The notes beneath the pieces are model-generated. The model did not search any database, had not been told where the DNA came from, and saw only the letters and a list, made by a program, of their open reading frames with translations. Below are positions 8,906 through 30,789 of a DNA stretch of 64,000 bases, in pieces. Source of the DNA: an uncultured bacterium. GTDB taxonomy: Bacteria > Patescibacteriota > Minisyncoccia > UBA6257 > 2-01-FULL-56-20. A program made the translations under genes and the position numbers. Position 1 is the first letter of the stretch; the number at the start of each line of letters is the position of its first letter. The stretch lies in contig OY970354.1 of assembly GCA_963718515.1 (NCBI GenBank), positions 566,808 to 630,807 on the forward strand. The letters are read 5' to 3'.

Positions 8906-8920
8906 ATGCGGCTCTATGAT

Positions 8921-9307: not shown

Positions 9308-9368
9308 AAATAGTATGGCTCAAGTCTAGCATGGTTTATCTATATAAACTAGTGGTATTATACTACAC

Positions 9369-15169: not shown

Positions 15170-15231
15170 CTGTACGGAAGATTAAAAATAGGTTATATTA
15201 TCTAGACAACGCGCCAACACGCGTTCTTATT

Positions 15232-16684
15232 ATGTCTAACAACGAAGTGATTCTCCGGTTTAATGATGTGTCGTTCGAGTATGGAAAGAAGCCCATTTTA
15301 CACGAGGCCACGTTTTCCGTGCGCCGCGGGGCTAAGATCACCCTGATGGGGCAAAATGGTGCCGGCAAGAGCACGATGTTCCAACTCATCCTCGGAAACA
15401 TCGTGACGGAACAAGGCAACGTCATTGTGGAAAAAGGATTGACGATGGCCATCGCGAAGCAGGTCATCCCGCGCGCCGAGCTGGACTCGACGGTGCTCCA
15501 ATTTTTTGAGAACGCGTTCCCCAAAAAGGTGTACGACATTGAGCCGCGCATAAAGAAAGTCCTCGAGGTGGTGAATCTCGTGGCCCCGCTCGATCGCGCA
15601 CTCAAGAGTTTTTCCGGCGGACAACAGGCGCGACTTCTTCTCGCACACGCCCTCATCCAAGACCCCGACATGCTCCTGCTTGACGAGCCGACCAATAATC
15701 TGGACAAGGCCGGCATCGAACATCTCACCAAATTTATCATCGATTCCAAAAAGACCTGCATCGTCATTTCTCACGACGCCGACTTCTTGAACTCATTCAC
15801 GCAAGGCGTGCTCTATTTGGACGTCTTTACCAAGAAGATCGAGCAGTACACTGGCAATTATTTTGACGTATTGAAAGAGATCACCGCGCGGCTTGAGCGC
15901 GAGCGCATGAAGAACGTGCGCCTCCAGCGCGACATCATTCACCGCAAAGAACAGATGAACTTCTTTGCACAAAAAGGCGGCCACATGCGCGACGTTGCCC
16001 GTAAGATGAACGAAAAGATCGAGGAACTCGAGGAAGAAGTCGTGGAGGTCCGCCAGGAAGACAGGACGATCCGCGGATTTGTCATCCCTTGCCAGGAAGA
16101 TATCAGCGGCCGCATCCTTGAGCTCACGTCGGTGAACGTCATCAGGAATCATAAACCGGCGGCAAAGAAAGTTGACTATCGCGCTCAAAAAAGGCGAGCG
16201 CTTGCACTTGGTAGGGCCGAACGGTATCGGAAAGACCACATTGCTTGAAGCGCTCGCGACCGGCCATGCAAAGGGCGAGCTCGTTGAACCGGGAATCCGC
16301 ATCGGCTATTATCGCCAGGATTTTTCCACACTCGATTTTGAGGCGACGGTTTGGGATACGCTCGCTCGCGCCATGCGCGAAGGCGATCAGGATCGATTGC
16401 GCTCCACCGCCGCAGGATTCCTGCTCGACGCGGACCTGCTTCGCGCGCGGATCGGCGCGCTCTCCGAAGGCCAGAAGGGCCTCGTCGCTTTTGCAAAACT
16501 ATCACTTGAGGCGCCGGGCCTCCTCATTCTCGATGAGCCGACGAACCACATCAACTTCCGCCATATTCCGGTCATCGCAAAAGCCCTCGACCGCTATGAA
16601 GGCGCCATGATCCTCGTGAGTCACGTCCCGGACTTTGTGAAGCAGATAAAGATCGATTACACGCTCGATTTGGCGGCGTTATAG
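15232..16684 (+). pseudogene. ABC-F family ATPase interrupted by a +1 frameshift near 16165-16172
   Basis: Domain 1: GQNGAGKST, FSGGQQARL, LLLDEPTNNLD (frame of 15232). Domain 2: GPNGIGKTTLL, LSEGQKGLV, LILDEPTNHINF (frame of 16172). Homology switches frame at AAKK|LTIALKKGERL. Confidence 0.7.
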
Positions 16685-16753
16685 ATAATATAAACACGAT
16701 GGGCGGACATCTTCCGTAGAAATTGCATACCGCCAGCCACTACTGAATCCAGT

Positions 16754-17140
16754 TTAGCTTTCTTTCTTCTCCAGCTCCAAACACACCGAGTTGATGCAAT
16801 ATCGCTTGCCGCCTTTGTCTTCTGGGCCGTCGTCGAAAACGTGTCCAAGATGCGCACCGCAGGTTTTGCAGATCACTTCGGTACGCTTCATGCCGTAGCT
16901 TGAATCGGTTTTCAATTCGACGTTCGCCAGATTGGCAGGTTCGGTAAAGCTCGGCCAGCCAGTGCCGGAATCGAATTTGGTGTCGGACGAGAATAGTTCC
17001 GTGCCACACACCGCGCACTTATACATACCCTTCGAATGCTCGTTCCAATATTTTCCTTTGAACGCGCCTTCAGTGCCGCCTTCGCGTGCAACGTGATAGA
17101 GCTCCGGCGATTCCTTTTTGAGTTCTTCGTCTGATTTCAT
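16754..17140 (-). CDS. msrB: peptide-methionine (R)-S-oxide reductase MsrB
   Basis: CAVCGTELF...GTGWPSF...[12 protein letters not shown], i.e. the Zn-Cys pairs plus the catalytic motif. Confidence 0.95.
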
Positions 17141-17144
17141 ATTT

Positions 17145-17681
17145 TTAATTTTTTAATAATGTTTTAAATTTCTCCTGCATCTTTTGGACTTTCGGCTCGA
17201 TGATCACCTGGCAATATCCCTGCTCGGGATGATTTTTGAAATACTGCCGGTGATAATCTTCCGCATCATAGAATTCGCCGAGCGGTATGACCTCCGTGAC
17301 GATCGGTTTACCGCCGGGATCGGATGCCGTGAGGTCGGCGATGAACTTCTCGGCGTCGGCTTTTTGTTCCGGCGTGGAATAAAAGATGGCCGAGCGATAC
17401 TGCGTGCCGACATCATTCCCTTGCCGATTGAGCGTCGTCGGATCATGCGTGGCAAAAAATACGGTTAAAAGATCTTTAAATGATATTTGACTTGGATCGA
17501 ATTCCACGCGCGTCGCTTCCGCATGGCCTGTCGTGCCGGTGCACACGGCGTCATAGCTCGGATTCTTGACGGTGCCACCGGTATAGCCCGGCATTACCGA
17601 AACCACACCGCGCAATTCTTCGAACACCGCCTCCGTACACCAGAAGCATCCGCCGCCGAATACCGCAATTTCATTTTTCAT
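17145..17681 (-). CDS. msrA: peptide-methionine (S)-S-oxide reductase MsrA
   Basis: [12 protein letters not shown] active-site motif. Confidence 0.95.
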
Positions 17682-18307
17682 GTTAGTGGATGTTCTTTTA
17701 GAAGATTTGCATAATACACGAGATTTTTTGCCATCACGCCCGTCATGTGCGGCGTTGCCTTATTCTTTAAGCGCCGCTCGCGATCGGTCTTTGGATCCTC
17801 GCCGACCTCGCCTACCCAATATGCCGCGCACTGCGGCGGGAGCGTAAAGTTCATAAACGTCAGCACCTCCATAATGCCGGCAAGCGTCGCCTGCGCGCCA
17901 TCCTCACTGCCTGTGATCACGACGCCTGCCACTTTATTCAAAAGCTCGGCGCGGCCGCCGGCGATTACCTCTTCATCGAATGCATCGAGGCGCTCTATCA
18001 CGCGTTGCATCAAGCTTGAGCGGCCGCCCCACCAGATCGGCGTGGCAAATATGACGATGTTCGCCTTGCGGATCTTGTCCACGATCGCGGGCCATTCATC
18101 GCCATCGCCTTCATTGAATCCCAGACCCACGGGAATATTTTTGTCCGCGAGCCGGACGATCTCCGATCGTATCGTTGCCTGTTTAAGGTCCTCCATATTT
18201 TTAATGAGCATCTGCGCGACCTCTTCGGTATTCGAAACCTCCCCGCCCTGGTGTTTAAGGGATGCATTCAAAACCAGGACATTAAGTTCGTTTTGCATTT
18301 GATCCAT
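17678..18307 (-). CDS. flavodoxin-like NAD(P)H-dependent FMN reductase family protein
   Basis: VLNASLKH...IVIFATPIWWGGRSSLMQRVIERLD. 4-nt overlap with the msrA start. Confidence 0.7.
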   Translation of the reverse strand: MDQMQNELNVLVLNASLKHQGGEVSNTEEVAQMLIKNMEDLKQATIRSEIVRLADKNIPVGLGFNEGDGDEWPAIVDKIRKANIVIFATPIWWGGRSSLMQRVIERLDAFDEEVIAGGRAELLNKVAGVVITGSEDGAQATLAGIMEVLTFMNFTLPPQCAAYWVGEVGEDPKTDRERRLKNKATPHMTGVMAKNLVYYANLLKEHPLT

Positions 18308-18337
18308 ATTATTTATGATTCTTAATATTGTTTTCGC

Positions 18338-19528
18338 TTATCCAAACGTGAATGTGAATGCTTGGAGCCCCGGAGTCTCAACCTTCAGCTCCAGCGTGTG
18401 CTCGCCGCCGCCATCCGGATTATTTACGATATTGTAGAGCCGGTTGCCCGATACCGTCATTTTACCATTTTGGACATCGCTTCCCGCCGCCGCGCCGATC
18501 GGCTGTCCGTCCTGCATGACATCGACGACCGTTCCGTTGGCGGCGCCTGCCGCCACCATATAAACCTTGCCTGCATCATACTCATACGTGATCGTGGCAC
18601 CGGCGCTCAAGTTCGTTGCATACTGATCCTCAAAATCCCATGCGCCGCCAAGATAGAGGGAATTCGGATTGATCGATGCCACGGCGGGCGTGGTGAGCGT
18701 CTGGGTGCCATTTACCAGATAAGTTCCATTTGCAAGAAGACTGTTCCGTTCTGCGCCAAAATATGTTTCAGGGCTGTTGATCTCATTCAAGTTTGCCGCG
18801 GCGACATTCACCGTCCCGGTCGGGATCGAGTTGGGATCGAGACCTAAGATCGTTGCCCGTTGCTGGAGCTCTTTTTGGATCTCCGCCTCGGACTCGGCAT
18901 AACTGCCTTCTCCGACCTGGTTGTGCACGATATACCCGGCCATGTCGATCAGATATTTATTCGGCCAATAAAGATTGTTGTATGCATCCCACGTGCCATA
19001 ATTACTGTCGAGAATGACCGGATAGTGGATGCCGTATTCCTGCACCGCATTCTGCACGTTTGAAAGTTCTTTTTCAAAATCAAACTCCGGCGTGTGGATA
19101 CCCACGATCTCGAGTCCGTAATCTTTATATTTTTGATACCACGCATTGAGATACGGAATGGTGCGCACGCAGTTGATGCAACTGTAGGTCCAAAAATCAA
19201 GCAAGACCACTTTTTTTCCTATCAGGCTGGAAAGGGTGAACGTCGAAGAAGTATTAATGAATCCTGTCGGATCCACGATCTCCACCGCGGGCTGATCACC
19301 GGCTGCCTTATCCGCCGCCGCGATCTCTACCAATGAGGTCTGGAGTGTGCTTGTGCTAAGGACTGCATTCCCACTGCCAGGCGTCGTGCTCGATGTTGCA
19401 CCGACATTCAGCGCCTGCACCGGCTGTCCGGAAGAACTGGGATGGACTTTTACGCTTTCTAAATACCATACCCCGCCAATAATAAGAATGATGACGATGA
19501 CCAGCCAGATTTTTTTTGTAGTGCTCAT
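18338..19528 (-). CDS. membrane-anchored thioredoxin-like protein (TlpA/DipZ C-terminal type) with an extra beta domain
   Basis: Anchor IWLVIVIILIIGGVWYL. Thioredoxin motif FWTYSCINCVRTIPYL (CxxC). A roughly 170-aa C-terminal domain follows. Confidence 0.8.
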   Translation of the reverse strand: MSTTKKIWLVIVIILIIGGVWYLESVKVHPSSSGQPVQALNVGATSSTTPGSGNAVLSTSTLQTSLVEIAAADKAAGDQPAVEIVDPTGFINTSSTFTLSSLIGKKVVLLDFWTYSCINCVRTIPYLNAWYQKYKDYGLEIVGIHTPEFDFEKELSNVQNAVQEYGIHYPVILDSNYGTWDAYNNLYWPNKYLIDMAGYIVHNQVGEGSYAESEAEIQKELQQRATILGLDPNSIPTGTVNVAAANLNEINSPETYFGAERNSLLANGTYLVNGTQTLTTPAVASINPNSLYLGGAWDFEDQYATNLSAGATITYEYDAGKVYMVAAGAANGTVVDVMQDGQPIGAAAGSDVQNGKMTVSGNRLYNIVNNPDGGGEHTLELKVETPGLQAFTFTFG

Positions 19529-19538
19529 AGTTTTTATT

Positions 19539-20261
19539 TTATACTTTGAATTTTAATAAAAGATCGTTCACAAAACCGAAATTGGCGATCAGCGGGAGAT
19601 CCTGCGTAAAAACCAACACGCCAAGCACAACGAGGATCGCGCCAAAGACCGGATTAACGTATTTGAGTTTGTCCGCATACTTATTGATGAGGTTCGCGCT
19701 TTGCGCGACGAACAGTCCTACGATAAGGAACGGAATGCCGAGCCCTATCGCATATGAAAGTAGAAGCCAGAACGCCTCGCCCGGTGCTGATGCCGCGATG
19801 CCGAGGATGCCACCGAGCACCGGACCCACGCACGGTGTCCATCCCGCGGCAAACGCGAGGCCGAATAGGAATGAAGTAAGATAGCGGGATTTCGACCTCG
19901 TGGGATTCAGATTGAGCTTATGGTCCATTTCGAACATGCGGATCCTGAAGAATCCCATAAGATAGAGCCCAAAGAAGATCACGATCGTGCCGCCGATCCA
20001 CGCGAGCCATGATTGCACCGCGTACGCCACGTGCGCGAGTGCACCGTTCAGCAATACGCCGAGGAGCGCAAATATCACCGAAAAGCCGATCACAAAAAAG
20101 AGGCTGTTCAAAAATATGCTGAGGCGCGATGGCTTCACGGTCGTTGAAGATGATTCCCCGGCCAAATATGCCAGGAATCCGGGAATGATGGGGAGAATGC
20201 ACGGCGAAAGGAATGAGACGATGCCGGCAAAGAATGCGATGAAGATCGGAATGTCTGTCAT
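19539..20261 (-). CDS. ccdA: cytochrome c biogenesis / thiol-disulfide transporter CcdA (DsbD core)
   Basis: FLSPCILPIIPGFLAY and GWTPCVGPVLGGIL motifs; 6 TM segments. Confidence 0.9.
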   Translation of the reverse strand: MTDIPIFIAFFAGIVSFLSPCILPIIPGFLAYLAGESSSTTVKPSRLSIFLNSLFFVIGFSVIFALLGVLLNGALAHVAYAVQSWLAWIGGTIVIFFGLYLMGFFRIRMFEMDHKLNLNPTRSKSRYLTSFLFGLAFAAGWTPCVGPVLGGILGIAASAPGEAFWLLLSYAIGLGIPFLIVGLFVAQSANLINKYADKLKYVNPVFGAILVVLGVLVFTQDLPLIANFGFVNDLLLKFKV

Positions 20262-20272
20262 AAAAAATTCAG

Positions 20273-20635
20273 TTACAATTTATTTTTGCTATAGATAAGC
20301 CCTACGACCTTGGCGATCACCATGATGGCGAGTGCAAATACGAGCCATGGATCAAGCGCATGCTGGAGTTCACCCGCGACGATGCCGATGAGCAAAAGCG
20401 CGGAGCCGGCAAGATAGGCAATGCGATCCGCAAATAAGCGATGAAATTCCTCACGTTCATCGCCGTGATTTTCTTTCCATAAAAATACCGCGAAGGCGGT
20501 ATAGAGCACGACCGCCGCAATAAGAAATCCCATAATGATGTACCCCGGCATAAAGAGATTCCACGGGTTGAAAATAATATACAGCAATGCCACCAAACCG
20601 AGTCCCACCGATAATTCCCCCTTAAATGTATTCAT
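20273..20635 (-). CDS. four-helix membrane protein paired with an XRE regulator (DUF2178-like arrangement, from memory)
   Basis: 120 aa, 4 TM segments, 3 nt downstream of the HTH gene. Confidence 0.5.
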   Translation of the reverse strand: MNTFKGELSVGLGLVALLYIIFNPWNLFMPGYIIMGFLIAAVVLYTAFAVFLWKENHGDEREEFHRLFADRIAYLAGSALLLIGIVAGELQHALDPWLVFALAIMVIAKVVGLIYSKNKL

Positions 20636-20638
20636 GAT

Positions 20639-20839
20639 TTATAGATAAAAAAGATCCTCGACGGGTTTTTTAAAGAATTTTGCCAGTTTGAGCGCGAGGA
20701 GAACCGAAGGGACGTAATTCCCTTTTTCGATGGCAATGATCGTCTGCCGGCTCACGCCGATCTTTTCCGAAAGTTTTTCCTGCGTGATGTCGGATCCCAT
20801 CCGTATCTCATATATTTTATTCCGCACCGCCTCTTTCAT
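20639..20839 (-). CDS. XRE-family helix-turn-helix transcriptional regulator (66 aa)
   Basis: ITQEKLSEKIGVSRQTIIAIEKGNYVPSVLLALKLAKFF. Confidence 0.85.
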   Translation of the reverse strand: MKEAVRNKIYEIRMGSDITQEKLSEKIGVSRQTIIAIEKGNYVPSVLLALKLAKFFKKPVEDLFYL

Positions 20840-20890: not shown

Positions 20891-22516
20891 CTATTGGACG
20901 AGGGGCAATGTGACCTTAAATGTGCTTCCGAGGCCTTCTCCTGGCGACTCGGCGGAGAGAGTGCCCCCATGTGCTTCCGTGATCTTGCGGGCAATGTAGA
21001 GTCCCAAGCCGGTGCCGCGGATCTCTTTCTTTACCCTCTCATCGCGGATGAATTCTTCAAAAAGATGCGGAATGAGCAATGCCGGAATGCCCAACCCGGA
21101 ATCCGTGACAGTGATTAAGGCAAATGTTCCTTCCCTTTTTAATGTCACCTTAATGAAGCCGCTCGGAGTATATTTTATGGCATTATCCACAAGGTTCTGG
21201 ACGACCTGCTTGAATTTCTCCCTATCGATATTAACAAACATAGCCTCTTGGGGCGGCTCACAGGTAAGCGTAAGATTTTTTGCCTGGGCGAGCGGCGACA
21301 CAAGATCCACCGTGCCCGTGATAAGCTGGGTCAGGTCAACGCGTTCAAAAACATATTCCATCTTGCCTTCTTCCACCTTGCGTATGTCAAGAAGCGTGTT
21401 GATAAGCTCGATGAGCTCATCTGCGGATCCCTGCACTTTTCCAAGCGTTTCCTTCACCTTATCCCCCACCGGCCCGTATGCGCCGCCCATGATAAGCGTA
21501 ATGAAGCCTTTTATTGCCGCGAGCGGCGATCGTATCTGATGCGACGCGAGCGACAAAAGCTGACTCTTGAAGCGGCCAAGTTCTTCGAGCTGTTTATTAT
21601 CCGCCTCGATCTTTTCGTTGAGGCGCTGAAGTTCCTCGCGCTGTTCGACTTCTTTCTGGACGCTCTGAATGAGGAGTAAACCAAAGATCAGAACAAGAAT
21701 GAATTCACCGATCCTGAATAACGTCTCCGGAAAGGTCTGCGAGAAAATAATCTCGGAAAACGTCGTGACGGTCAGAAGGAAGGCTAATATTTCCACGGAG
21801 ATCACCTTTACGCTCAACAAATGATATTTGGTGATCGCATAGGTGGTGAATGCGATGAACGGGAAAAAGAATACCGCGGCGAGAGGAATAAAGCGGACAT
21901 CCTGAAAGACGATCGGCAGGACGAGGTTGAAGATGATCAACAGCAGGAATGTGATCGCCGCGCCGCACAGCACAAAAATGAATTGTGTTCTTTCCAATCC
22001 TTTTGTCTTTATCATCTTTTTTATCAAAAGTATGAGTGCGGCGATGACGAGACCGAAGGCGGTTATCCCGAAGAGCGGGATGCCTGGCCCGAGGATAGCC
22101 TGCGAGACCATTCCCACCTGCTCGGGCTTTTCAATCCCGGCAAAGATGAACGGAGTGAGAGTGAGCAGCGATACCAAGCCTACCGCGGGAACAAGCAACC
22201 ATTTATAGAGTGATGGATAGGTCGCCGACTCCCGCGGAAATACGTAAGAAAAATGAAAGAATGAGAACGCGTGCCAGAGGGCGAAAAAGATAGTGAACCG
22301 CAGGACCCACAAGATAATGCTCGGGGTATTGAGTTGATAGCTCACATAATTTACCGCGCTGTAGAATACCGTCAGGCCTGATAAAAAAAGGAACGCGCGA
22401 GCGGTTGAACTCTTTGGATTGTTCAAGAATACCACAACACCAAGCACGCAAATGGCCGCTATCGTCACCCCAACCGCAAGAAGATATATATTTAAAAATG
22501 CCGAGAGGAAGTTCAT
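20891..22516 (-). CDS. sensor histidine kinase with a multi-pass membrane sensor domain
   Basis: About 290 aa of TM helices and a coiled coil. H-box SLASHQIRSPLAAI, N-box DNAIKYT, G-boxes DSGLGI and GTGLGLYIA. Confidence 0.9.
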   Translation of the reverse strand: MNFLSAFLNIYLLAVGVTIAAICVLGVVVFLNNPKSSTARAFLFLSGLTVFYSAVNYVSYQLNTPSIILWVLRFTIFFALWHAFSFFHFSYVFPRESATYPSLYKWLLVPAVGLVSLLTLTPFIFAGIEKPEQVGMVSQAILGPGIPLFGITAFGLVIAALILLIKKMIKTKGLERTQFIFVLCGAAITFLLLIIFNLVLPIVFQDVRFIPLAAVFFFPFIAFTTYAITKYHLLSVKVISVEILAFLLTVTTFSEIIFSQTFPETLFRIGEFILVLIFGLLLIQSVQKEVEQREELQRLNEKIEADNKQLEELGRFKSQLLSLASHQIRSPLAAIKGFITLIMGGAYGPVGDKVKETLGKVQGSADELIELINTLLDIRKVEEGKMEYVFERVDLTQLITGTVDLVSPLAQAKNLTLTCEPPQEAMFVNIDREKFKQVVQNLVDNAIKYTPSGFIKVTLKREGTFALITVTDSGLGIPALLIPHLFEEFIRDERVKKEIRGTGLGLYIARKITEAHGGTLSAESPGEGLGSTFKVTLPLVQ

Positions 22517-22518
22517 TG

Positions 22519-23595
22519 CTACGATAGGGTTGTGATCGCCGGCGGCTTCTTGAGCGACGACGCGGTCGGCGGGTCGGCATAGCCGATGCGGAACATCATG
22601 ACGATCGTTTTTCCGTCGGTATCAAATATCGACTGTATGCCTTCATATGCTTTTTCGACCGCTTCCTTTTGGCCATCGGTGAATACATCACCTTCACCCG
22701 CCACTATGCGTTGGTAGAAAAAGAGGACGCCGGTGAGCGGTTGCATGCTCAATCCTTCCTTTGTTGCAGTGAGCCATAATCGTTGTAACACCCTCCCTGC
22801 GTCGATGAAGGAACGGGTTCGCTCATCGGTGATCGTAATGATCCCTATCGCGGAAGCGGATGCATATATCTTGCTATTTTCCTTCGCCCCCATTTTTGCG
22901 GCACCGAGCGCATTAAAGATCCTCATAATTGCCCAATGTTTAAAAAGACGGAACATCGCCCGGGCGGGAGGAAGCAGTTCGAGCACTTCAATATAAAATC
23001 CGGAGCGTTCTTTTACCTCTTCTTCCAATGTCCAGTGCACATGGGAAAAGAAAAAATCGTGGAGCGATTTGTTTTCAAGGAGAAGTGAATCATTGACGCT
23101 CGCGATATTCGCCAGGCGTTTAATATTGGAAGGTTCCGTGACGAACGCCACCTCGATGCCTTCCATTTCTTTGCCAGCATCCGAAAGTGTTTTGATCACC
23201 GGCGCCGGGATCGCCCCTCCTTTATATATCTTTCGGTTCGTTGAACGCTCCGCGATGAATGGATAAAGGAAAAACCCATCGTTTCCGCTTCCATCGCCCA
23301 CTTCACTCAGTAAGATCGTGGCGACGAGATTCGTGTCGTCGCCCTTGGACATAATTGTGACGGATGCCATAAGACCGAAGTGTCCGGCGGCGATACTGAT
23401 ATTTTCTATCACCGCACCATGGGCTATGGACGATGCCCGTTGCTGAAAATTATAAAGGGATTGATCGTTCTCGGGAACATTAAAAAGGGATATCTCGTTC
23501 CCGCGGACGGCAAACCGCCACGGTTGGGCGTTTTCCCCGGAAGGTGCTTGGACGGCAGACTCAAGGATGCGTTGTATCGTCTCGGGAGACATCAT
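22519..23595 (-). CDS. double-domain nitroreductase-fold FMN oxidoreductase (Acg / Rv1355c C-terminal type)
   Basis: AVQAPSGENAQPWRFAV; 358 aa, about twice a simple nitroreductase. 2 nt upstream of the HK start. Confidence 0.7.
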   Translation of the reverse strand: MMSPETIQRILESAVQAPSGENAQPWRFAVRGNEISLFNVPENDQSLYNFQQRASSIAHGAVIENISIAAGHFGLMASVTIMSKGDDTNLVATILLSEVGDGSGNDGFFLYPFIAERSTNRKIYKGGAIPAPVIKTLSDAGKEMEGIEVAFVTEPSNIKRLANIASVNDSLLLENKSLHDFFFSHVHWTLEEEVKERSGFYIEVLELLPPARAMFRLFKHWAIMRIFNALGAAKMGAKENSKIYASASAIGIITITDERTRSFIDAGRVLQRLWLTATKEGLSMQPLTGVLFFYQRIVAGEGDVFTDGQKEAVEKAYEGIQSIFDTDGKTIVMMFRIGYADPPTASSLKKPPAITTLS

Positions 23596-23612
23596 CCTTT
23601 ATAGTATATCAC

Positions 23613-24809
23613 TCACAGTCCGAATATTTTACGAAATTCCTTTGCGGTTTTTGCCCGGCCCCTGCGTGCTGCCGGCGAATTGTAGCCCGGGAGCAATCGT
23701 TCGTCGAGCGAAACGATCGAACGGTTATCGATGACCGGCTGGCCATTCACGATTTTGCGCACGCAATAAGCGACGGATGCGCCGGAGAGCATCGCTGCAC
23801 CGCCAAGCTGTGGCCATGAGACGATCGTCTTCCCAAGTTGGAGCAATGATTGGCGCATGCGCTCCGTGACGTTCTCGGGACCAACGTGTTTCGTGATCAT
23901 TTTTCCGATCTCGAACTTTTTGAGGTCGCTCAGGCTCTCATACGAAACATTCCCCAATCTGCCATGAAAAAATTTTGTCTTTGGGTTTTTATCATATCGC
24001 TCGACGTCCACAACCGCGCTATCGCCATTGTCTGCGGCCATCACGACCGCGAGGCGATTCTTCTTCGCGTGCTCGCGAATGAGATATTTCATGCCGAGAT
24101 GATCAACTTCGTCGACGACGATATCCAATTTTGGCGCACCGTTAAAAAAGCGCGCGATGTTCTTTGGGTTTAGGCCGTCCTCGAATATCTCGACGGTTGC
24201 ATACGGATTCATCTCGTAAATCTGCCGCGCGGCCATCTCTACTTTTAACAAGCCGAGATTTTGAATGCCCGAACGGATGCGGTTCGTGTTTGAAAGCGCG
24301 AGCCGGTCATGGTCGGCAAGCCGGATATGTCGCCCCCCGCCCTGGAGGGCGATCGCGAGCGCCACATTGGAGCCGACGCTCAACCCAGCGATGCCGATCA
24401 CCGCGTCATAGAATTTTTCTTGCTCTCCATCACTCACCAGATATCGGTTCCGCGCGGTGCGGACGCGTTGGAAATCATGTTCATGCAAAATATGCGAAAT
24501 TGCGAAGAGCCATGGAAGATATACCCATATGCCATGGTAGATAAGCGGTGCCTTCTTAGTGATCGATGCGATATATTTTTGGAAGAGCGCCTCAAATTCC
24601 GGGCTCTGTGCGAGCGTGGGATTGTTTATGGCAAACAACTCTCGCTGTTCTTCCATATAATCATCCACGACGGAACGAATGGCGTGGGTTTTAAGCAATG
24701 CGGAGACCTTCGAGCGATCATTCGCACGTGAGAGATCGAATAATAATGGCTTCTGCGGTCCCCCTGCGGCAGTCATCTTCTTTAATTTTTTTTGCAGTAT
24801 ATTATCCAT
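23613..24809 (-). CDS. ThiF/MoeB/E1-like adenylyltransferase-fold protein (Rv1355c N-terminal type)
   Basis: IGIAGLSVGSNVALAIALQGGG...LADHDRLALSNTNR Rossmann/adenylation motif, preceded by a roughly 130-aa N-domain (WVYLPW). Confidence 0.7.
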   Translation of the reverse strand: MDNILQKKLKKMTAAGGPQKPLLFDLSRANDRSKVSALLKTHAIRSVVDDYMEEQRELFAINNPTLAQSPEFEALFQKYIASITKKAPLIYHGIWVYLPWLFAISHILHEHDFQRVRTARNRYLVSDGEQEKFYDAVIGIAGLSVGSNVALAIALQGGGRHIRLADHDRLALSNTNRIRSGIQNLGLLKVEMAARQIYEMNPYATVEIFEDGLNPKNIARFFNGAPKLDIVVDEVDHLGMKYLIREHAKKNRLAVVMAADNGDSAVVDVERYDKNPKTKFFHGRLGNVSYESLSDLKKFEIGKMITKHVGPENVTERMRQSLLQLGKTIVSWPQLGGAAMLSGASVAYCVRKIVNGQPVIDNRSIVSLDERLLPGYNSPAARRGRAKTAKEFRKIFGL

Positions 24810-24816
24810 GGCAATA

Positions 24817-26322
24817 TTATTTTATATTTGAGTGACGTTCGATATAGTGCGGTTTCAATCCGGGTTTAAAGTAGCGGGTATGCTGATATGGCCACAACTT
24901 GATGCGCGGGCGCACATCTTTCTTGATGTGAGCACTCATATCCAGGTATTCAAGATTGATCCTGCGCAACGTTTCCGTGACGCTTGCTCGGATCTCCGCG
25001 GCAAAGGTTGCATTTGGCTTGATAGCCTGGCATAGCTCAATGTTGATCGTCCAATATTGGTCCATCCCCTCGTCCAGGGATTTCGTGATCACAAACTTTC
25101 CGGTCAATGCCCGCATCAGGCGCTTCGTATTCAAGCCTGCTTTGATATGCTCCGGATAGATATTCACGCCATAGAATTTTATCGTGTCGTCGCTCCGGCC
25201 AGAGAAGCAGACGAGCGGCAGCTGACGAGATGGTTCCGAAAGACCTGAGGGCTTGCCACCAGCGCGCATCATCGCGCTCTTGACCTCTTCTGCGGAAAAC
25301 ACTTTTCCCCGATCGTGGATATTAAAGCGGATAAGCGGAATGCCACTCGAGGAAGAAAAAATAAGTTCGTTCTTTATTGATTCGATATAGCGAAGCGACG
25401 GATGATATTGAAAAAATTGGGGCGCGACGGGATCCCCCGTGAGTACTTCGAGGAATTCCGGATGCTGTTCCGCAAACCGCTTTACGGAAATACTAAATGG
25501 AGTTTCATATCCCATAAGGAGCATCTCGGATGAACCATAGGTGTTAAATATCCGCATGGCAGACGCCGGGATCCCAGCTTTTTCCGCGATATAACTCCGC
25601 CACACTTCGTTGAATCCTTCGCTACAGAACATCAGGCCGAGATGCTTTTTGGACCATGCGATCCCCTCTCGTGCGCCAGATTCGATCACATCTTTAATAA
25701 AGAATGGATGCCCGATCAAAACGGTCTGATCATAGTGGTGAGAAAGATTTTGCACCCCGCGGAGCATCTCTTTTTTATTATTCCCCACGCTCATAATCGT
25801 CATCTGGTATTTTTTGAGCGCGGTGAGCCAGCTCGGCAGGAGCGTCGCAACGCCCGAGATATAGATCCCCATGGGGAATCCAATCAGCAATAAGGTTGAG
25901 TGTTTTTGGATATTAAAATATTCCCGGTATAAGAATTCGTGAACGAGCGCCGCCTCGAGATCTTGTTCTACAGTCCGCGGCCAGAACTTAGGCTCGCCGG
26001 TGGTCCCTGAACTTGTGGCGATGAACTGGGCCGAGGAAATATTGCCGTCCCAGCATCGCGCTTCCACCGGATAGCGGGCGATATAATTTTTAGCATCCGT
26101 GAGCGGCACGGCGGAAAAGTCCGCCATGGTTTTTACGCGCGCGTGATTCACGCGCTCCGATTTAAGGAATGCCTTATACGCAGGCACGCGCTCCGCCGCA
26201 GAATGGAAAAGTGCGAGCGCTTTTTTGCCCGCACGATCCGGCAACAGCCATTCGCCGCGGGCCAGCAATAATCCCTTAAGCGATCCGAGTGTTCTATTTG
26301 ATATCAACAGTTCCTTATTCAT
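24817..26322 (-). CDS. adenylate-forming ligase, PaaK / coenzyme F390 synthetase-like
   Basis: ATSSGTTGEPKFWPR (P-loop-like A3 motif), YGSSE. Start trimmed to MNKELL at 26322, giving an 8-nt overlap with the lyase stop. Confidence 0.75.
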   Translation of the reverse strand: MNKELLISNRTLGSLKGLLLARGEWLLPDRAGKKALALFHSAAERVPAYKAFLKSERVNHARVKTMADFSAVPLTDAKNYIARYPVEARCWDGNISSAQFIATSSGTTGEPKFWPRTVEQDLEAALVHEFLYREYFNIQKHSTLLLIGFPMGIYISGVATLLPSWLTALKKYQMTIMSVGNNKKEMLRGVQNLSHHYDQTVLIGHPFFIKDVIESGAREGIAWSKKHLGLMFCSEGFNEVWRSYIAEKAGIPASAMRIFNTYGSSEMLLMGYETPFSISVKRFAEQHPEFLEVLTGDPVAPQFFQYHPSLRYIESIKNELIFSSSSGIPLIRFNIHDRGKVFSAEEVKSAMMRAGGKPSGLSEPSRQLPLVCFSGRSDDTIKFYGVNIYPEHIKAGLNTKRLMRALTGKFVITKSLDEGMDQYWTINIELCQAIKPNATFAAEIRASVTETLRRINLEYLDMSAHIKKDVRPRIKLWPYQHTRYFKPGLKPHYIERHSNIK

Positions 26323-27883
26323 CGCGCCGATGCATATCCAAAATCGCACTCTCTTTTGCGTAGTGTACGACACGCGCGAGCTGATGCGAAGCTTCGCGGT
26401 CGTCGATGATCGGCGGGAATATTTTTTGGATGTCGCGGATGAGCGCACGGGAAGATAAGGAATACTTATTCTTTGCCCCGAGGCACTCGGCAAGCTGCCC
26501 TAATGCCACGAGTTCTATTGAAAGCACGATGTATGCGTTTTCTATGACCTCCGCCGTCATGATCGACGCGTCGGTGCCCATGCTTACGATATCCTGATTG
26601 TCCGCGTTCGTGGGAATGGAATGGATATGTTGAGGAAAGGCCAATGTCTGGCTACGGGCCGTCGTGGAGGTCGCAACAAACTGAAGCCCCTGGAGCCCCA
26701 TCGTAAGACCCGGGGTTTTCATGTTGAGAAACGGAGGAAATGACTTATTGACGGCGCGATTCATAAAAAAGTTGATCCGGCGCTCCGAAAGCATGGTGAG
26801 TTTGACAATAGCCGCCTTCAGCTGGTCGACGCCCGCCGCGATATATTCCCCGTGAAAATTTCCGCCATGCAAGAATGCTTTTCCCTTAACATCAATGATC
26901 GGATTATCCGTCACCGAATTCACTTCTACCACCACTTCGCGGGCAAATATTCTTAGGGTATCAAGCACAGGCCCAACCACCTGCGGAATACATCGGAACG
27001 AATACACTTCCTGAACGCTCTCTGGAATCGTGTGGGTTTTATCAGTGAGCGCCACCGAATCCTGAAATTTTTGCCGGCTGCGCATCAGCTTTGATGAAGC
27101 GGTGAGCGAGCGCAACATTCGCGCAATATCCTTTTGCCCGGGATGCGGACGAAGTGCGTGTAATTGTTCCGAGATGCCGTCAGTGAATGAATTTACTGAT
27201 TCCAAGGCGCATGCGGCATTCCGAACGGCAAGACTCACAAGGCGCTCCGCTTCCACGCAAAGCAATGCCGAGATGCCGGTCATCATCGACGTGCCATTGA
27301 TGAGAGAAAGTCCCTCCTTGGCTTTTAATACATACGGCCCCATATGTAACTTCTTTAACACTCCCGCAATCGGTTGACGCTTTCCTTTATAGAACACCTC
27401 GCCCTCCCCGATGATCGCGAGGCCAATGTGCGCAAGCTGTACCAGATCGCCGCTTGTTCCGACCGCGCCATGTTCCGGGACGACGGGAACTACCCGTTCA
27501 TTGATAAAACGGGCAAGTCGCTGTAGTGGCGCCACAGAGATCCCGGAATATCCTTTGAGCAATGTGTTCAAGCGGACGACCATTGCGGCAACCACATACT
27601 CTTCCGGCAGAGGCTCACCCATGCCCATCGCGTGGCCATGAATGAGATTTTTTTGGAGCGCAATGAGCTCATCGCGGCCAATGATGTGCGATGCCATAGG
27701 ACCAAAGCCGGTGTTCACGCCGTAGATGATCTTTTTGCGCGTCGCCGCTTCCAAAAACCGCTCCGCCCGCGTGACGCGCGCGAGCGCGGCGGGGTCGATC
27801 CTCACCCGTGCCGCGGCATCGTGGGCGATCAAATAAATGTCTTCAAGCGAAATGTCACTTCCTGTAAGCGTAATGGTCTTCAT
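26315..27883 (-). CDS. MIO-dependent aromatic amino acid ammonia-lyase family (HAL/PAL/TAL/aminomutase)
   Basis: YGVNTGFG, GAVGTSGDLVQLAH (MIO triad T143-S144-G145 at 27449-27457), LQKNLIHGHAMGMG. Start trimmed to MKTITL at 27883. Confidence 0.9.
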   Translation of the reverse strand: MKTITLTGSDISLEDIYLIAHDAAARVRIDPAALARVTRAERFLEAATRKKIIYGVNTGFGPMASHIIGRDELIALQKNLIHGHAMGMGEPLPEEYVVAAMVVRLNTLLKGYSGISVAPLQRLARFINERVVPVVPEHGAVGTSGDLVQLAHIGLAIIGEGEVFYKGKRQPIAGVLKKLHMGPYVLKAKEGLSLINGTSMMTGISALLCVEAERLVSLAVRNAACALESVNSFTDGISEQLHALRPHPGQKDIARMLRSLTASSKLMRSRQKFQDSVALTDKTHTIPESVQEVYSFRCIPQVVGPVLDTLRIFAREVVVEVNSVTDNPIIDVKGKAFLHGGNFHGEYIAAGVDQLKAAIVKLTMLSERRINFFMNRAVNKSFPPFLNMKTPGLTMGLQGLQFVATSTTARSQTLAFPQHIHSIPTNADNQDIVSMGTDASIMTAEVIENAYIVLSIELVALGQLAECLGAKNKYSLSSRALIRDIQKIFPPIIDDREASHQLARVVHYAKESAILDMHRRDE

Positions 27884-27896
27884 AATAATGGTCTTA

Positions 27897-28295
27897 CTAT
27901 CTATCGTGCATGAATTTACGCAGATTCTCACTCAACGTAGAAACGTCTAATTTACTAAAGAATACAACGCCAGCAAGTTCCTCCGCAAGCCGCGCCCGCT
28001 CCGCCTGCGGGATCTCCGCCATCGGATCGCGTAAGCTCGTAAAAAAAGCGAACTGGATCCTTTGTATCTTAGGATTGCGCCGCACCGCCATGGCAAATTC
28101 CCAGCCGCTCGGGCCCGGCGGCATATAAATATCGCTCAAAATAAGGTCTGGCAGGAGCTCTTCCGCCTTGGTGAGCGCCTCATCCACGCTACGGGTGATC
28201 ACCGTATCAAAACCTTCGGATCGTAATTGCACCGAGGCGATCTCTAAAAAGTCTTCTTCGTCATCGATCAGAAGGACAAGGGGATGTTCTCTCAT
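27897..28295 (-). CDS. stand-alone response regulator receiver domain protein
   Basis: LLIDDEEDF, LILSDIYMP (phospho-Asp), FFTSL, FFSKLD. No output domain. First gene of the operon. Confidence 0.9.
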   Translation of the reverse strand: MREHPLVLLIDDEEDFLEIASVQLRSEGFDTVITRSVDEALTKAEELLPDLILSDIYMPPGPSGWEFAMAVRRNPKIQRIQFAFFTSLRDPMAEIPQAERARLAEELAGVVFFSKLDVSTLSENLRKFMHDR

Positions 28296-28334
28296 GGGGT
28301 AATATTATATTACCATACGGGGTATACTGATGGC

Positions 28335-28838
28335 ATGAAGCTGTTCCAGGAAAAAAATTACCGCGCGCTTTTTAGAATAGGCATTCTTGTAAAAGCGGTG
28401 GATGGAATCATCGAGGCCGGCGCCGGGGTTTTCCTTTATTTTGTAAATTATTCCACGGTGAACGCGATCCTCTTCTCGGCGTTTCGGGAAGAAATAGCGG
28501 AGAATCCGAGAGATGCTTTTTGGCAATATCTCATCAATGAGTGGCACGCACTCTCGTTGTCCCGGCATTCCTTTTGGGGAATATTATTTTTTGTGCACGG
28601 AATAACGAAATTTTTATTATCCATAGCCCTTTTAAAAAACCAGCTGTGGGCATATCCAACGTCCGCAGCGATCTTCACGCTTTTCGTGGCGTACGAAATA
28701 TATTCGTGCGTCTATCATCCATCGCTATTCCTTGGGCTCATCGCCGTGTTTGACGCCTCCGTCGTCATTTTGATCCTGCACGAATATCGTCACTTGATAA
28801 AAAATAATTCTGGTCTTCTTTTTACTAAAATTAAATAA
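28335..28838 (+). CDS. four-helix membrane protein (DUF2127-like, from memory)
   Basis: Start trimmed to MKLFQEKNYRALFRIGILVKAVDGIIE; 4 TM segments. Confidence 0.55.
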   Translation: MKLFQEKNYRALFRIGILVKAVDGIIEAGAGVFLYFVNYSTVNAILFSAFREEIAENPRDAFWQYLINEWHALSLSRHSFWGILFFVHGITKFLLSIALLKNQLWAYPTSAAIFTLFVAYEIYSCVYHPSLFLGLIAVFDASVVILILHEYRHLIKNNSGLLFTKIK

Positions 28839-28977
28839 AGTCCGGGCTGAGAAGTTTGCGGAGGCAATGCCGGCTTGGTCGTTCATTCTGATGAACGCGG
28901 CATTGCCGAGCACACAGGCTGGCGGGTGCCGCAGGAGCACCTGAACAGCCGGTTCTCAGCCCGGACTTTATTTAATT
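28829..28977. terminator. compound inverted repeat: a bidirectional terminator-like 25-bp outer stem enclosing a 99-nt two-hairpin insert (candidate structured RNA or MITE)
   Basis: AATTAAATAAAGTCCGGGCTGAGAA (28829-28853) is the perfect reverse complement of 28953-28977. Inner stems: 28863-72/28898-907, 28880-86/28891-97, 28917-21/28946-50 and 28925-29/28937-41. Confidence 0.55.
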
Positions 28978-30789
28978 ATTTTTTCCCGCCTTCTTCCGTT
29001 CGTTCTCGTTCAAATATTTCTTGCGGATGCGAACGTTCTGCGGGGTGATCTCCACAAGCTCGTCATCGCTGATATAATCGAGCGCATCTTCGAGCGTGAG
29101 CGTGAGCGGCACCTCGAGCTGATCCGCCAATCCTTCGTTCTTCGCGCGGAAGTTGGTGAGTTCTTTCTCCCGCGCCACGTGCACGAGCACATCGCCTTCG
29201 CGGGGCGTTTCGCCCACCACCATGCCTTCATAGACCGCAACGCCGGCGCTGATGAAAAGTATCCCCCTGCCCTGCGCCGTCACAAGGCCATAATTATTTG
29301 ACGTGCCCGCCTGCGTGGCGACGATCGAACCGTGAAGCAACGGCGGGAGGTCGCCTTTGTACGGTTCATATCCCAAAAATATCGTGTTCATGATGCCGGT
29401 GCCTTTTGTGGCGGTCAGAAATTTATTCCGAATGCCGATAAGGCCGCGCGTCGGAATTGTAAAGTCCATGTAGGCATTCTTATTATCGTCCACACGCATA
29501 TTCGTCATCAGACCCAAGCGCTTGCCCAACATCTCAATGACAGTGCCGGAATACATCTCCGGAACTTCGATTGAAACGAGTTCGATCGGCTCGGTCTTCT
29601 TGCCATCCACTTCTTTATAAATAACCTGCGGCTTGGAAACCTCGAGCTCAAACCCTTCGCGGCGCATTTTTTCGATAAGAATAGCGAGGTGCAGTTCACC
29701 GCGCCCCGCGACCACCCAGCGATCGCTCGCTTCGGTCGGCGTCACCGCGAGCGCCACGTCAGTCTCCAATTCTTTTTCGAGACGATCCTTAAGATTGCGC
29801 GACGTCGTAAACTTTCCTTCCTTGCCGCGGAACGGCGACGTGTTCACGGAGAATGTCATTTTGATCGTCGGCTCGTCGATGTGGATTGTCGGCAAGCGCG
29901 ATCGGACGCGGCCGGGTCAGCGATCGTTTCGCCGATCGAGACGTCCGGAATGCCCGCGATGCAAACGATCTCCCCCGCCTCGGCGGACTCTACTTCTATC
30001 TTTCCCAAGACCATCAAAAAGCATCACCGACGTGAGTTGCGACATTTTTTATGTCGCCCGCGCGATTGATATGCGCGACCGTCATATTCTTTTTGAGAGT
30101 GCCGGAATATAAACGCCCGATCGCGATCTTGCCTTTATAGTTATCGTAGGCCAAATTAACCGTGAGCATCTGCAATGTATCGATCTCGCTCTTTTTGGGC
30201 GCCGGCAGATAGTTCACAATCGTTTCAAATACCGGCAAAATGTCTGTCATCTTGGAAAGATCTTTTTCGCATGCCTGCCTTGCCATCACGCGCAGCGGCG
30301 TAGATCACCGGGAATTCGATCTGCTCTTCCGTGGCGTCGAGCTCAAAGAAAAGATCGTAGGTGGCGTTCAACGCCCACTCCACACGCGCATCCGGCTTGT
30401 CGATCTTGTTCACCACGACGACCACTCTTGTGGCCGGCCTGAATGGCTTTGCGCAAAACGAACTTTGTCTGCGGCATCGGGCCTTCTTTTGCATCGATGA
30501 GCAAAAGCACGCCATCCACCATTCGCATGATGCGCTCTACCTCGCCGCCAAAGTCCGCGTGGCCGGGCGTATCCACGATGTTGATCTTTGTATCTTTATA
30601 GATAACCGATGCGTTCTTGGAAAAAATCGTAATGCCGCGCTCGCGCTCGAGCTCGTTCGAATCCATGATAAGGTCGCCGTTGGTCGCCGTCTTCTGCTTA
30701 AAACTTGCAGATTGCTTTAATAAGGCATCGACGAGGGTCGTCTTGCCGTGGTCAACGTGTGCAATAATGGCGATGTTTCGGATATCCAT
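28972..30789 (-). pseudogene. typA: translational GTPase TypA/BipA, disrupted by at least 5 frameshifts between about 29890 and 30435
   Basis: N-terminus [26 protein letters not shown]. Homology then hops frames: NKIDKPDAR / DILPVFETIVNYLPAP / LFDGLGK / IEVESAEAGEIVCIAGIPD / LPTIHIDEPTIKMTF... through to the C-terminus. Confidence 0.85.

Follow-up and report, generated by a model that had tools for sequence, protein, structure and literature searches.

A candidate variant oxazolone biosynthetic operon with a co-encoded sensor kinase in Patescibacteria

The window analyzed here is a 64,000-nucleotide stretch from an uncultured member of the Patescibacteriota (assembly GCA_963718515.1, contig OY970354.1, positions 566,808 to 630,807), in which six consecutive minus-strand open reading frames (ORFs) span 20891-28295. 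They encode a single-domain response regulator, a 4-methylideneimidazole-5-one (MIO) aromatic amino-acid ammonia-lyase, a divergent PaaK-family adenylating ligase, a ThiF/E1-like protein, a flavin-dependent oxidase (FDO), and a seven-transmembrane sensor histidine kinase (Table 1), and on balance we favor the interpretation that together they form a variant operon for oxazolone biosynthesis, to which a two-component sensor is coupled. From response regulator to kinase the junctions are 13 nt, an 8-nt overlap of the ligase gene over the lyase stop, 7 nt, 17 nt, and 2 nt. A first-pass annotation had described a tight six-gene operon here, and an ORF check gave the same coordinates and junctions throughout; all of the motifs that it quoted were found in the window proteins, and searches of each protein against Pfam and NCBIfam profiles upheld every domain call and reassigned none. 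Promoter-like and terminator-like sites are no more frequent than in shuffled sequence, and its status as an operon thus rests on the tight junctions and on synteny.

Table 1. Predicted features of the cassette, its methyltransferase variants, and the flanking genes (window coordinates unless a locus is named)
Feature	Position	Strand	Remarks
Single-domain response regulator	27897-28295	minus	132 aa; first operon gene; Response_reg 1.4e-10
MIO aromatic amino-acid ammonia-lyase	26315-27883	minus	522 aa from the ATG of the first-pass annotation; Lyase_aromatic PF00221 6e-154
Divergent PaaK-family (ANL) adenylating ligase	24817-26322	minus	501 aa; weak PaaK/FlxY/GH3/AMP-binding matches
ThiF/E1-like ATP-dependent cyclase	23613-24809	minus	398 aa; ThiF and N-half of Rv1355c family 4.9e-93
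Double-nitroreductase-fold flavin-dependent oxidase, monomeric	22519-23595	minus	358 aa; Nitroreductase and C-half of Rv1355c family 9.1e-59
Seven-transmembrane sensor histidine kinase	20891-22516	minus	541 aa; HisKA_7TM, HisKA, and HATPase_c
S-adenosylmethionine (SAM) methyltransferase	L015:13637-14362, L017:8490-9224, L021:13658-14377, L040:13675-14403, L041:5318-6136		between oxidase and kinase
DUF2127 membrane protein	28335-28838	plus	4e-24; divergent, upstream border of operon
XRE-type helix-turn-helix (HTH) protein	20639-20839	minus	downstream of kinase
Membrane protein	20273-20635	minus	120 aa; downstream of kinase
DsbD/CcdA-like protein	19539-20261	minus	downstream of kinase
Thioredoxin-like lipoprotein	18338-19528	minus	further downstream
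FMN reductase	17678-18307	minus	further downstream
MsrA	17145-17681	minus	further downstream
MsrB	16754-17140	minus	further downstream

The ThiF-oxidase pair and the distribution of the cassette

The fourth and fifth genes are best described, from their profile matches, as a split oxazolone synthetase of the TrzS/OxzB type. The ThiF protein matches NCBIfam PRK07877, the Rv1355c family, at 312.7 bits over profile positions 5-349 of 722, and the oxidase matches the same profile at 199.4 bits over positions 374-713; the oxidase also matches PRK14851 (3.9e-75) and the Acg family (1.1e-44). Each split half alone falls below the PRK07877 cutoff of 476 bits, and the two scores sum to 512. Fused ThiF-oxidase versions of 726-747 aa are present in the related cassettes L022, L034, and L041, and score 500.1 bits in L034, which is above the cutoff, and 474.2 bits in L022, which is just below it. 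These fusions, and the matching of the halves to opposite ends of the profile, bear out an earlier suggestion that the window contains a split Rv1355c architecture. The closest structures in the PDB are the t6A cyclodehydratase TcdA for the ThiF protein (2e-12) and Acg (2YMV) for the oxidase, and TcdA/ThiF and Acg are also the nearest structures reported for TrzS/OxzB-type enzymes (PMC12856293; bioRxiv 10.1101/2020.06.11.147165). Among 39 orthologs the Gly-rich loop GIAGLSVG, the LADxDxLALSNTNR motif, and the DExD motif (VDEVD) of the ThiF protein are invariant or nearly so, and the loop, the Arg finger (LSNTNR), and the Asp align with the active-site region of TcdA; the counterpart of TrzS D217 was judged through TcdA and not from an alignment to TrzS. 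The oxidase motifs APSGENxQPWRF, RxTNRK, QPLTG, and FRIG are likewise conserved.

Rv1355c-type proteins had been taken in the first-pass annotation to be uncharacterized, with no known context that fits the genes, but published work revises both points. OxzB, a ThiF-nitroreductase didomain protein and the founding member of the group, was described in 2020/21 as the oxazolone synthetase of Pseudoalteromonas rubra (bioRxiv 10.1101/2020.06.11.147165), TyzB (ThiF) and TyzC (FDO) are a split pair that makes N-acyl tyrazolones in M. tuberculosis (2023; PMC10404671), and Rv1355c is TrzS, an oxazolone synthetase that cyclizes N-acyl-Trp in an ATP-dependent reaction and then desaturates it in an O2-dependent one (2025; PMC12856293). 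In each of these systems an acyl-CoA-dependent N-acyltransferase encoded next door (OxzA, TyzA, or TrzA) supplies the N-acyl amino acid, and the known pairs form a 2-substituted 4-arylidene-oxazol-5-one from an N-acyl aromatic amino acid. Oxazolone biosynthesis is therefore a context that fits the ThiF-oxidase pair. By this precedent the ThiF protein would activate the carboxylate of an N-acylated amino acid, making it unlikely that two adenylating enzymes both activate an acrylate, as was first proposed, and the nitroreductase-fold protein would be an O2-dependent Calpha-Cbeta desaturase instead of a generic redox tailoring enzyme.

The cassette shares with OxzAB, TyzACB, and TrzAS (Rv1356c-Rv1355c) the combination of a ThiF-like cyclase with a nitroreductase-superfamily flavin oxidase, fused in OxzB and TrzS, split in TyzB/TyzC, and split in the window, where the two proteins match the Rv1355c profile end to end. 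It differs from all three in having no N-acyltransferase and containing a deaminating enzyme and a PaaK-family ligase instead, so that the proposed source of the acyl group is an amino acid and not the fatty acyl-CoA pool. It also differs in including a co-operonic seven-transmembrane kinase and often a receiver, and in having Patescibacteria as hosts; the three papers describe none of these features.

A scan for the ligase pattern in one genome per GTDB species returned 44 loci (43 non-redundant), all labeled Patescibacteria except for one metagenome-assembled genome (MAG) labeled Bryobacteraceae, and nearly all named ligase homologs carry Patescibacteria-type labels. A ‘Gammaproteobacteria’ label on one homolog (P0057) probably arose through a binning artefact, since the genes around this homolog (DnaJ upstream and TrpRS downstream) match those at loci of the Candidate Phyla Radiation (CPR). 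Counting only same-strand genes, and only loci whose contig is long enough, the lyase adjoins the ligase in 41 of the 43 non-redundant loci, and in these ligase-anchored loci ThiF is adjacent in 36/40, the oxidase in 31/38, and the kinase in 30/36. The same arrangement is present in 72 further metagenome loci and is far beyond chance. The neighborhood search thus showed the lyase-ligase-ThiF-oxidase-kinase set to recur in more than 100 Patescibacteria loci, where it is kept with tiny gaps at 36-75% identity (for the gaps between genes, the median upper bounds in the GTDB loci are 13-88 nt); the genes flanking the cassette vary between lineages. Gene order is permuted to ThiF-lyase-ligase-oxidase-kinase in L014 and L027, and to receiver-ThiF-ligase-lyase-oxidase-kinase in L130.

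Clustering of every ORF of 50 aa or more from these loci, with shorter ORFs of the variable flanks outside its scope, revealed no further conserved family, and specifically no acyltransferase, transporter, YcaO, or precursor peptide. An N-acyltransferase of the OxzA/TyzA/TrzA type is not conserved next to the cassette in approximately 125 loci. The first observation that the window has no YcaO, precursor peptide, or PAS partner of the photoactive yellow protein (PYP) type thus extends to the conserved neighborhood of the cassette loci. Recurring extra genes are limited to the single-domain receiver (approximately 14 loci) and a SAM methyltransferase (5-6 loci), and the conserved short ORFs in the clustered size range are limited to antisense ones inside the enzyme genes. 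The methyltransferase is a 240-aa class I enzyme with the motif LDVACGPG whose gene overlaps the start of the kinase gene; it is also found in metagenome loci L055, L057, and L063, and is likely to provide a tailoring step in a subset of cassettes.

Several loci depart from the common plan. In L122 a restriction-modification pair (a DNA methylase and an EcoRII-C endonuclease; 5408-7673) sits between the ThiF and oxidase genes of an otherwise canonical cassette, and frameshifts split both the lyase and the ligase genes. L028 contains a second, divergent ligase (33% identity) paired with ThiF at 15167-17446, 4 kb downstream of its first cassette. In L029 and L046 the genes run oxidase-ligase-kinase, with no lyase and with ThiF absent or 7.6 kb away, and L129 has the order receiver-ligase-ThiF-oxidase-kinase, with no deaminase. 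The Bryobacteraceae-labeled locus L038 (DATDHK010000034.1, 8332-11407) has a lyase-ligase pair but, within 4.5 kb of it, neither ThiF nor the oxidase or kinase; panC, panB, and a gene for a GT4 glycosyltransferase lie on its flanks and make the locus look genuinely non-CPR, and a lyase-ligase pair can exist as an independent module outside the CPR. In L129 we also noted an upstream gene (1910-2857) for an AstE/AspA-family, aspartoacylase-like protein, a possible N-acyl amino acid hydrolase, and a downstream gene (8683-10101) for a protein of 472 aa that contains a PanD aspartate decarboxylase domain and faintly matches F420 ligase.

The deaminating enzymes and the ligase

The lyase matches PF00221 at 513.6 bits (cutoff 27.3) over residues 12-486. 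The MIO-forming GAVGTSGDLVQLAH is present in 38 of the 43 lyase orthologs, the TSG triad is nearly invariant, and the motifs YGVNTGFG, LINGTS, and YSFRCIPQ are conserved, in agreement with its first assignment as an MIO enzyme. Its best NCBIfam match is the FlxA tyrosine ammonia-lyase (TAL) model (NF053541) at 578.4 bits, under the cutoff of 700, and it is 44% identical to a reference sequence that passes this cutoff (901.5 bits); we take the reference to be FjTAL, its membership of the family being the part that was confirmed. The score against hutH (TIGR01225) is 440.8 bits, below both the cutoff of 539.15 and the FlxA score, and the NQEDH motif of histidine ammonia-lyase (HAL), whose Glu is catalytic in HAL, is absent: the window lyase has TNADNQDIVSMG where the HAL-annotated structure 7tqr has SANQEDHVSMG. 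The orthologs carry NQD(I/V) at this position, NQDI in the window, and the lyase and the FlxA reference share the S/G-H and NQD signatures. The substrate-switch residues are S-H in the orthologs and G-H in the window lyase, and S-H in both the FlxA reference and 7tqr; because they are common to these two, they leave the substrate unsettled. From these comparisons the enzyme is most likely TAL-like, of the FlxA type, and would convert Tyr to p-coumarate.

These data place the lyase outside canonical HutH, as the first-pass annotation had supposed, and hutU and hutI are absent from the conserved neighborhood, the rest of the genome not having been searched. They also bear on a quite different explanation of the cassette, as a catabolic system for His or aromatic amino acids, or as a system for ribosomally synthesized and post-translationally modified peptides (RiPPs) in which the E1-like protein and an FMN dehydrogenase carry out heterocyclization as in thiazole/oxazole-modified microcins (TOMMs). 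The 441 bits scored by the lyase on hutH and the resemblance of an E1-like plus nitroreductase-fold dehydrogenase pair to the McbB/McbC pairing of TOMM systems lend this some appeal, and we nonetheless regard it as highly improbable. Canonical histidine utilization is rejected on the hutH score, the missing NQEDH, and the absence of hut neighbors in the loci. The peptide version is rejected because there is no YcaO, the only conserved small ORFs (of at least 50 aa) are antisense shadows, the gaps are at most 17 nt, and the ThiF protein and oxidase match the TrzS family rather than the Ocin-ThiF/SagB models.

The ligase is divergent, scoring 42.3 bits against the phenylacetate-CoA ligase equivalog, far below the cutoff of 646.3. 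The ANL motifs SSGTxGxPK, YGSSE, and GRSDD and the C-terminal Lys (K490) are nonetheless invariant in 32 ligase homologs. An AlphaFold2 (AF2) model (predicted local distance difference test, pLDDT, 85.7) predicts a PaaK-type two-domain fold, with BT_0428, PaaK1/2, HCL, NatL2 (6six), AjiA1, and ClxA as the top Foldseek matches (probability 1.0, E 1e-23, and TM-scores of 0.65/0.76 for BT_0428 and PaaK1). An exhaustive HMMER scan at E<=1e-30 identified only 498 cluster representatives, indicating that the ligase belongs to a small distinct subfamily. Five long ligase-containing proteins were found (P0286, P0306, P0325, P0368, and P0381), of which three are fusions to ThiF: an ELFV dehydrogenase-ligase-ThiF protein of 1242 aa, a ThiF-ligase protein of 880 aa, and a ligase-ThiF protein of 863 aa. 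These fusions argue that the ligase and ThiF catalyze consecutive steps. The other two (619 and 665 aa) are extended at the N-terminus by 170-200 residues that match nothing in Pfam.

The PaaK-like enzymes ClxA and NatL2 join aryl adenylates to O or N nucleophiles of small molecules, forming ester or amide bonds without CoA. These enzymes and AjiA1, all from benzoxazole pathways, share the PaaK fold with the cassette ligase, and their CoA-free transfer of an aryl adenylate is the chemistry proposed for it. The cassette ligase is only 14-16% identical to them in structural alignments, is approximately 70 residues longer, and forms its own family of approximately 500 clusters. A MIO-type TAL encoded directly beside an aryl-acid adenylating ligase is also seen in the flexirubin pair FlxA/FlxY and in the TAL and p-coumarate ligase of PYP systems. 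The cassette differs from the former in its scores (578 bits against a cutoff of 700 for the lyase, and a remote similarity of 42 bits against the FlxY cutoff of 520 for the ligase), and from both in lacking polyketide machinery and a PYP/PAS protein.

The ligase could instead be an ordinary aryl-CoA ligase in a pathway whose end product is not an oxazolone. The ThiF protein and oxidase would then act on some other carboxylate, such as that of a peptide, a CoA-derived intermediate, or the C-terminus of a protein, or an unlinked acyltransferase would carry out the N-acylation. Phenylacetate-CoA ligases are the nearest relatives of the ligase in both sequence and fold, TAL and CoA-ligase pairs of the FlxA/FlxY type exist (as named in NCBIfam), and the lone lyase-ligase pair of L038 lies beside pantothenate genes. 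We nevertheless think this improbable, since the ThiF and oxidase halves specifically match the TrzS equivalog, more than 100 loci share no acyltransferase in their surroundings, and the ligase-ThiF fusions point to consecutive steps. CPR bacteria, moreover, generally lack fatty-acid biosynthesis and often CoA biosynthesis as well, and for this reason an ATP-activated acyl donor made from a scavenged amino acid would suit them.

A search with the full-length kinase, from which nine contexts were read, revealed close relatives of the window locus in which the lyase slot is filled by another enzyme. Loci L123, L124, L126, and L127 have window-like synteny, with TypA upstream and HTH, DsbD, and MsrAB downstream. 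The replacement in L123 and L127 is a branched-chain aminotransferase (IlvE equivalog, 366 and 381 bits; cutoff 279), and in L124 and L126 an ELFV dehydrogenase of the Leu/Phe/Trp type, for which the best match is the tryptophan dehydrogenase ScyB (approximately 291 bits). The ligases of these swap loci are only 31-35% identical to those of lyase-containing (MIO-type) loci and 52-72% identical among themselves, whereas between the two types of locus ThiF is 57-65% and the kinase core 62-74% identical. What the lyase, aminotransferase, and dehydrogenase have in common is only that each removes the alpha-amino group, leaving a 2-enoate or a 2-oxo acid, and because the ligase changes along with the first enzyme it is the obvious consumer of that acid.

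The seven-transmembrane kinase and the receiver

The kinase contains HisKA (4.8e-12) and HATPase_c (6.5e-27) domains with a conserved SHQIRSPL motif, and the receiver has acidic pocket residues D11/D12, the phospho-acceptor D55, T86, and K115; as read from the sequence, the two proteins carry the features of a two-component system (H-box, HATPase_c, and an intact receiver pocket). In all nine kinase-anchored contexts the oxidase gene lies directly upstream of the kinase gene. Across the cassette loci the kinase gene follows the oxidase gene at gaps of 0-27 nt or overlaps it by 4-8 nt, and the kinase stays attached through the order permutations, the fusions, the restriction-modification insertion in L122, and the first-enzyme swaps. 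The kinase half of the two-component bracketing suggested initially is thus upheld, the kinase being co-operonic in the ligase-anchored and kinase-anchored sets alike, but the receiver is not universal: it is adjacent, upstream or downstream, in approximately 14 of 43 ligase-anchored loci, about one third, and in most of the kinase-anchored ones; in L123, L124, L126, L127, L129, and L130 it immediately precedes the gene for the first enzyme. Elsewhere in the window, a second receiver-like sequence (9041-9307, minus strand) is 39% identical to the cassette receiver over 90 residues.

An AF2 model of the sensor domain (pLDDT 88.2) has 7-8 helices and a beta-hairpin. Its resemblance to seven-transmembrane G-protein-coupled receptors (E>=0.014, TM-scores of 0.3-0.5) was dismissed as generic helical-bundle similarity and not homology. 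The sensor domain has no conserved Cys, and its well-conserved Lys residues are limited to helix ends. HisKA_7TM is a widespread sensor domain for which we found no ligand named in the literature.

We compared domain-wise identities of the kinase with those of the enzymes, using Mantel tests in a near clade of 8 loci and partial correlations in 21 GTDB loci. In the near clade the kinase core is uniformly 62-79% identical, and the sensor domain is 64-74% identical among MIO-type loci and 44-51% identical between MIO-type and non-MIO loci. Sensor divergence correlates with that of the oxidase at r=0.71 (p~0.002) and with that of the ligase at r=0.49 (p~0.02), and not with that of its own kinase core (r=-0.20), which itself correlates with none of the enzymes. 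Among the 21 loci, partial correlations given the core are 0.66 for sensor and oxidase and 0.58 for sensor and ligase; given the sensor, those of the core are 0.11 with the oxidase and 0.19 with the ligase. ThiF co-varies least with the sensor (0.25), and because its gene lies between the ligase gene and the sensor-coding DNA this argues against pure physical linkage. The comparisons are suggestive of a sensor domain that diversifies with the ligase and the oxidase and not with its own kinase core.

We tentatively propose that the kinase, whose synthesis would be translationally coupled to that of the enzymes, together with the receiver where present, would sense the oxazolone product or a close derivative of it, which is possible but more doubtful than the biosynthetic assignment. 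An oxazolone could also be made while the kinase and receiver respond to some other cue, such as the state of the envelope, redox or O2, or nutrient status, with co-expression linking production, or an unrelated response, to this cue. This is rather unlikely in our view, yet it draws on several observations: the sensor is of a widespread type to which the literature consulted attaches no ligand, the receiver lacks an output domain, genes for MsrA/MsrB, DsbD, a thioredoxin-like protein, and FMN reductase adjoin the cassette in the window clade, glutaredoxin/thioredoxin reductase genes lie near the L126 cassette and a superoxide dismutase gene near that of L129, and the M. tuberculosis tyz locus is genetically linked to oxidative stress (PMC10404671; PMC12856293). 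Against it are the constancy of the kinase core as the sensor diverges alongside ligase and oxidase, and the retention of the kinase through permutations of gene order. The oxidative-damage repair block itself (window 16754-20839) is syntenic in L006, L123, L124, L127, and L128 and absent from the other 43 GTDB loci; being present in only 1 of 44 ligase-anchored loci it represents clade-specific synteny, and a general link between the cassette and oxidative-stress genes such as MsrAB, DsbD, and thioredoxin is rejected.

Proposed pathway and flanking genes

For the window proteins we infer the pathway steps by homology (ThiF and oxidase) or from context (lyase, ligase, and kinase). In the first, the lyase would deaminate one amino acid to an acid, here probably Tyr to p-coumarate; in the sister loci the aminotransferase or dehydrogenase would give a 2-oxo acid in place of the aryl-acrylate. 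In the second, on the precedent of NatL2 and ClxA, the ligase would adenylate this acid and use it to acylate the amino group of a second amino acid, probably directly, so that deaminase and ligase would together replace the OxzA/TyzA/TrzA N-acyltransferase. The third and fourth steps follow TrzS, TyzB, and OxzB: the ThiF protein would adenylate the free carboxylate, the amide oxygen would close the oxazolone ring, and the FDO would introduce a Calpha-Cbeta double bond using O2. The product expected for the window is a 2-(4-hydroxystyryl)-4-arylidene-oxazol-5-one, which should resemble the tyrazolones in being strongly conjugated, electrophilic, and water-labile (PMC12856293; bioRxiv 10.1101/2020.06.11.147165). 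Acid and methanol open the oxazolone ring (PMC12856293).

Several points weigh against this interpretation. The oxidase is the most divergent component, at 22-68% identity within one clade, and it needs O2, yet many Patescibacteria are thought to be anaerobic fermenters. The lyase and ligase stand alone in L038, and L029, L046, and L129 have no deaminase. As far as sequence goes, the substrate of the lyase is uncertain, urocanate or cinnamate being possible products in place of p-coumarate, and the acceptor of the ligase, whether an amino acid, CoA, or another molecule, is not revealed. We know of no direct precedent for N-acylation by a PaaK-type enzyme with a 2-oxo acid or an aryl-acrylate. 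On the sensory side, the sensor fold offers no clue to a ligand, with no match in the PDB at E<=1e-3 in a fold search, and Response_reg is the sole domain of the receiver, which has no output domain and no visible regulatory target. The co-variation of sensor and enzymes is suggestive only, coming from few and non-independent loci, and could reflect recombination of a stretch of DNA covering the oxidase gene together with the 5' end of its kinase neighbor.

The conjugation of the expected product invites the thought that it serves as a chromophore and not as a diffusible signal, either as a PYP-like p-coumarate or as an arylidene-oxazolone that reacts with a protein amine to form an imidazolinone like that of green fluorescent protein (GFP) or Kaede, making the kinase or another protein light-sensitive. 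A TAL with a coumarate-activating ligase is the chromophore module of PYP, and synthetic GFP chromophores are classically prepared by reacting an azlactone with an amine to give an imidazolinone. Absorption is at 360 nm for tyrazolones and at 400 nm for tryptazolones (PMC12856293; bioRxiv 10.1101/2020.06.11.147165), and a styryl substituent should shift absorption further to the red. We give this very little weight, in that there is no PAS/PYP domain, the only well-conserved Lys residues of the sensor are at helix ends, and the acyl groups expected from the aminotransferase and dehydrogenase variants would be non-aromatic and less conjugated. Covalent coumaroylation of the kinase in the manner of PYP is unlikely given the lack of both a PAS domain and a conserved sensor Cys.

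Returning to an oxazolone operon with its own sensor, a further and speculative extension, which we regard as less likely than not, is a quorum-sensing-like or host-sensing circuit peculiar to the CPR, in which a labile oxazolone autoinducer made from two scavenged amino acids is read by a dedicated seven-transmembrane kinase. The sensor domain would diversify along with the ligase and oxidase as the enzymes that determine the structure of the signal. Such a signal would need no fatty-acyl-CoA pool, and the lyase, aminotransferase, and dehydrogenase variants would constitute different ‘dialects’. The agr and comQXPA systems similarly combine signal-biosynthesis genes, a polytopic kinase, and a response regulator in one operon, and their receptor sensors diversify with the signal-specifying genes, as the cassette sensor co-varies with oxidase and ligase. 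They differ in that the signal proposed for the cassette is a non-ribosomal small molecule, its receiver has no DNA-binding domain, its sensor is of the HisKA_7TM type, and its signaling is a prediction. If correct, oxazolones would gain their first assigned receptor and Patescibacteria their first defined small-molecule signaling system.

The enzymology of genes 4 and 5, that of oxazolone synthetase, is known. In the literature searched we did not find the deaminase-plus-ligase route to an N-acyl amino acid, its modular variants, or the dedicated ligase subfamily, nor a conserved kinase with an oxazolone synthetase, restriction of such a system to Patescibacteria, or the cassette itself in this group. 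As interpreted here, the cassette would form the N-acyl amino acid precursor by a second route that needs no acyltransferase, the exchangeable acid supply points to a family of two-amino-acid oxazolones, and the new PaaK-type ligase subfamily may serve as a source of amide-bond biocatalysts. The physiological role of oxazolones, bacterial metabolites that came to light only recently, is a major unresolved question according to the authors of the TrzS study (PMC12856293), and it becomes open to genetic and biochemical tests with a specific kinase that is kept beside the synthetase through permutations and enzyme swaps. Since Patescibacteria have genomes of less than 1 Mb and almost no secondary metabolism, a six-gene unit for a metabolite and a sensor that many of their lineages have kept, a rare case of specialized metabolism in the group, is likely to matter for their episymbiotic lifestyle.

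The operon is bordered upstream by the divergent DUF2127 gene. In the public annotation of a Logan contig the receiver is preceded by an 87-aa ORF on the minus strand, at 28305-28568, which is probably spurious because the opposite strand encodes a clear DUF2127 protein; if it is discounted, the divergent intergenic region between receiver and DUF2127 genes is approximately 39 nt. A ligase identical to that of the window is also present on a Logan contig from run ERR11630394. Further upstream, the typA/bipA gene of the window (28972-30789, minus strand) is fragmented into four or more ORFs that overlap and lie in different frames (30343-30789, 30225-30515, 30014-30289, and 28972-29895), reflecting either assembly frameshifts or a pseudogene; the syntenic orthologs in L123 and L124 are intact, at 602 and 619 aa.

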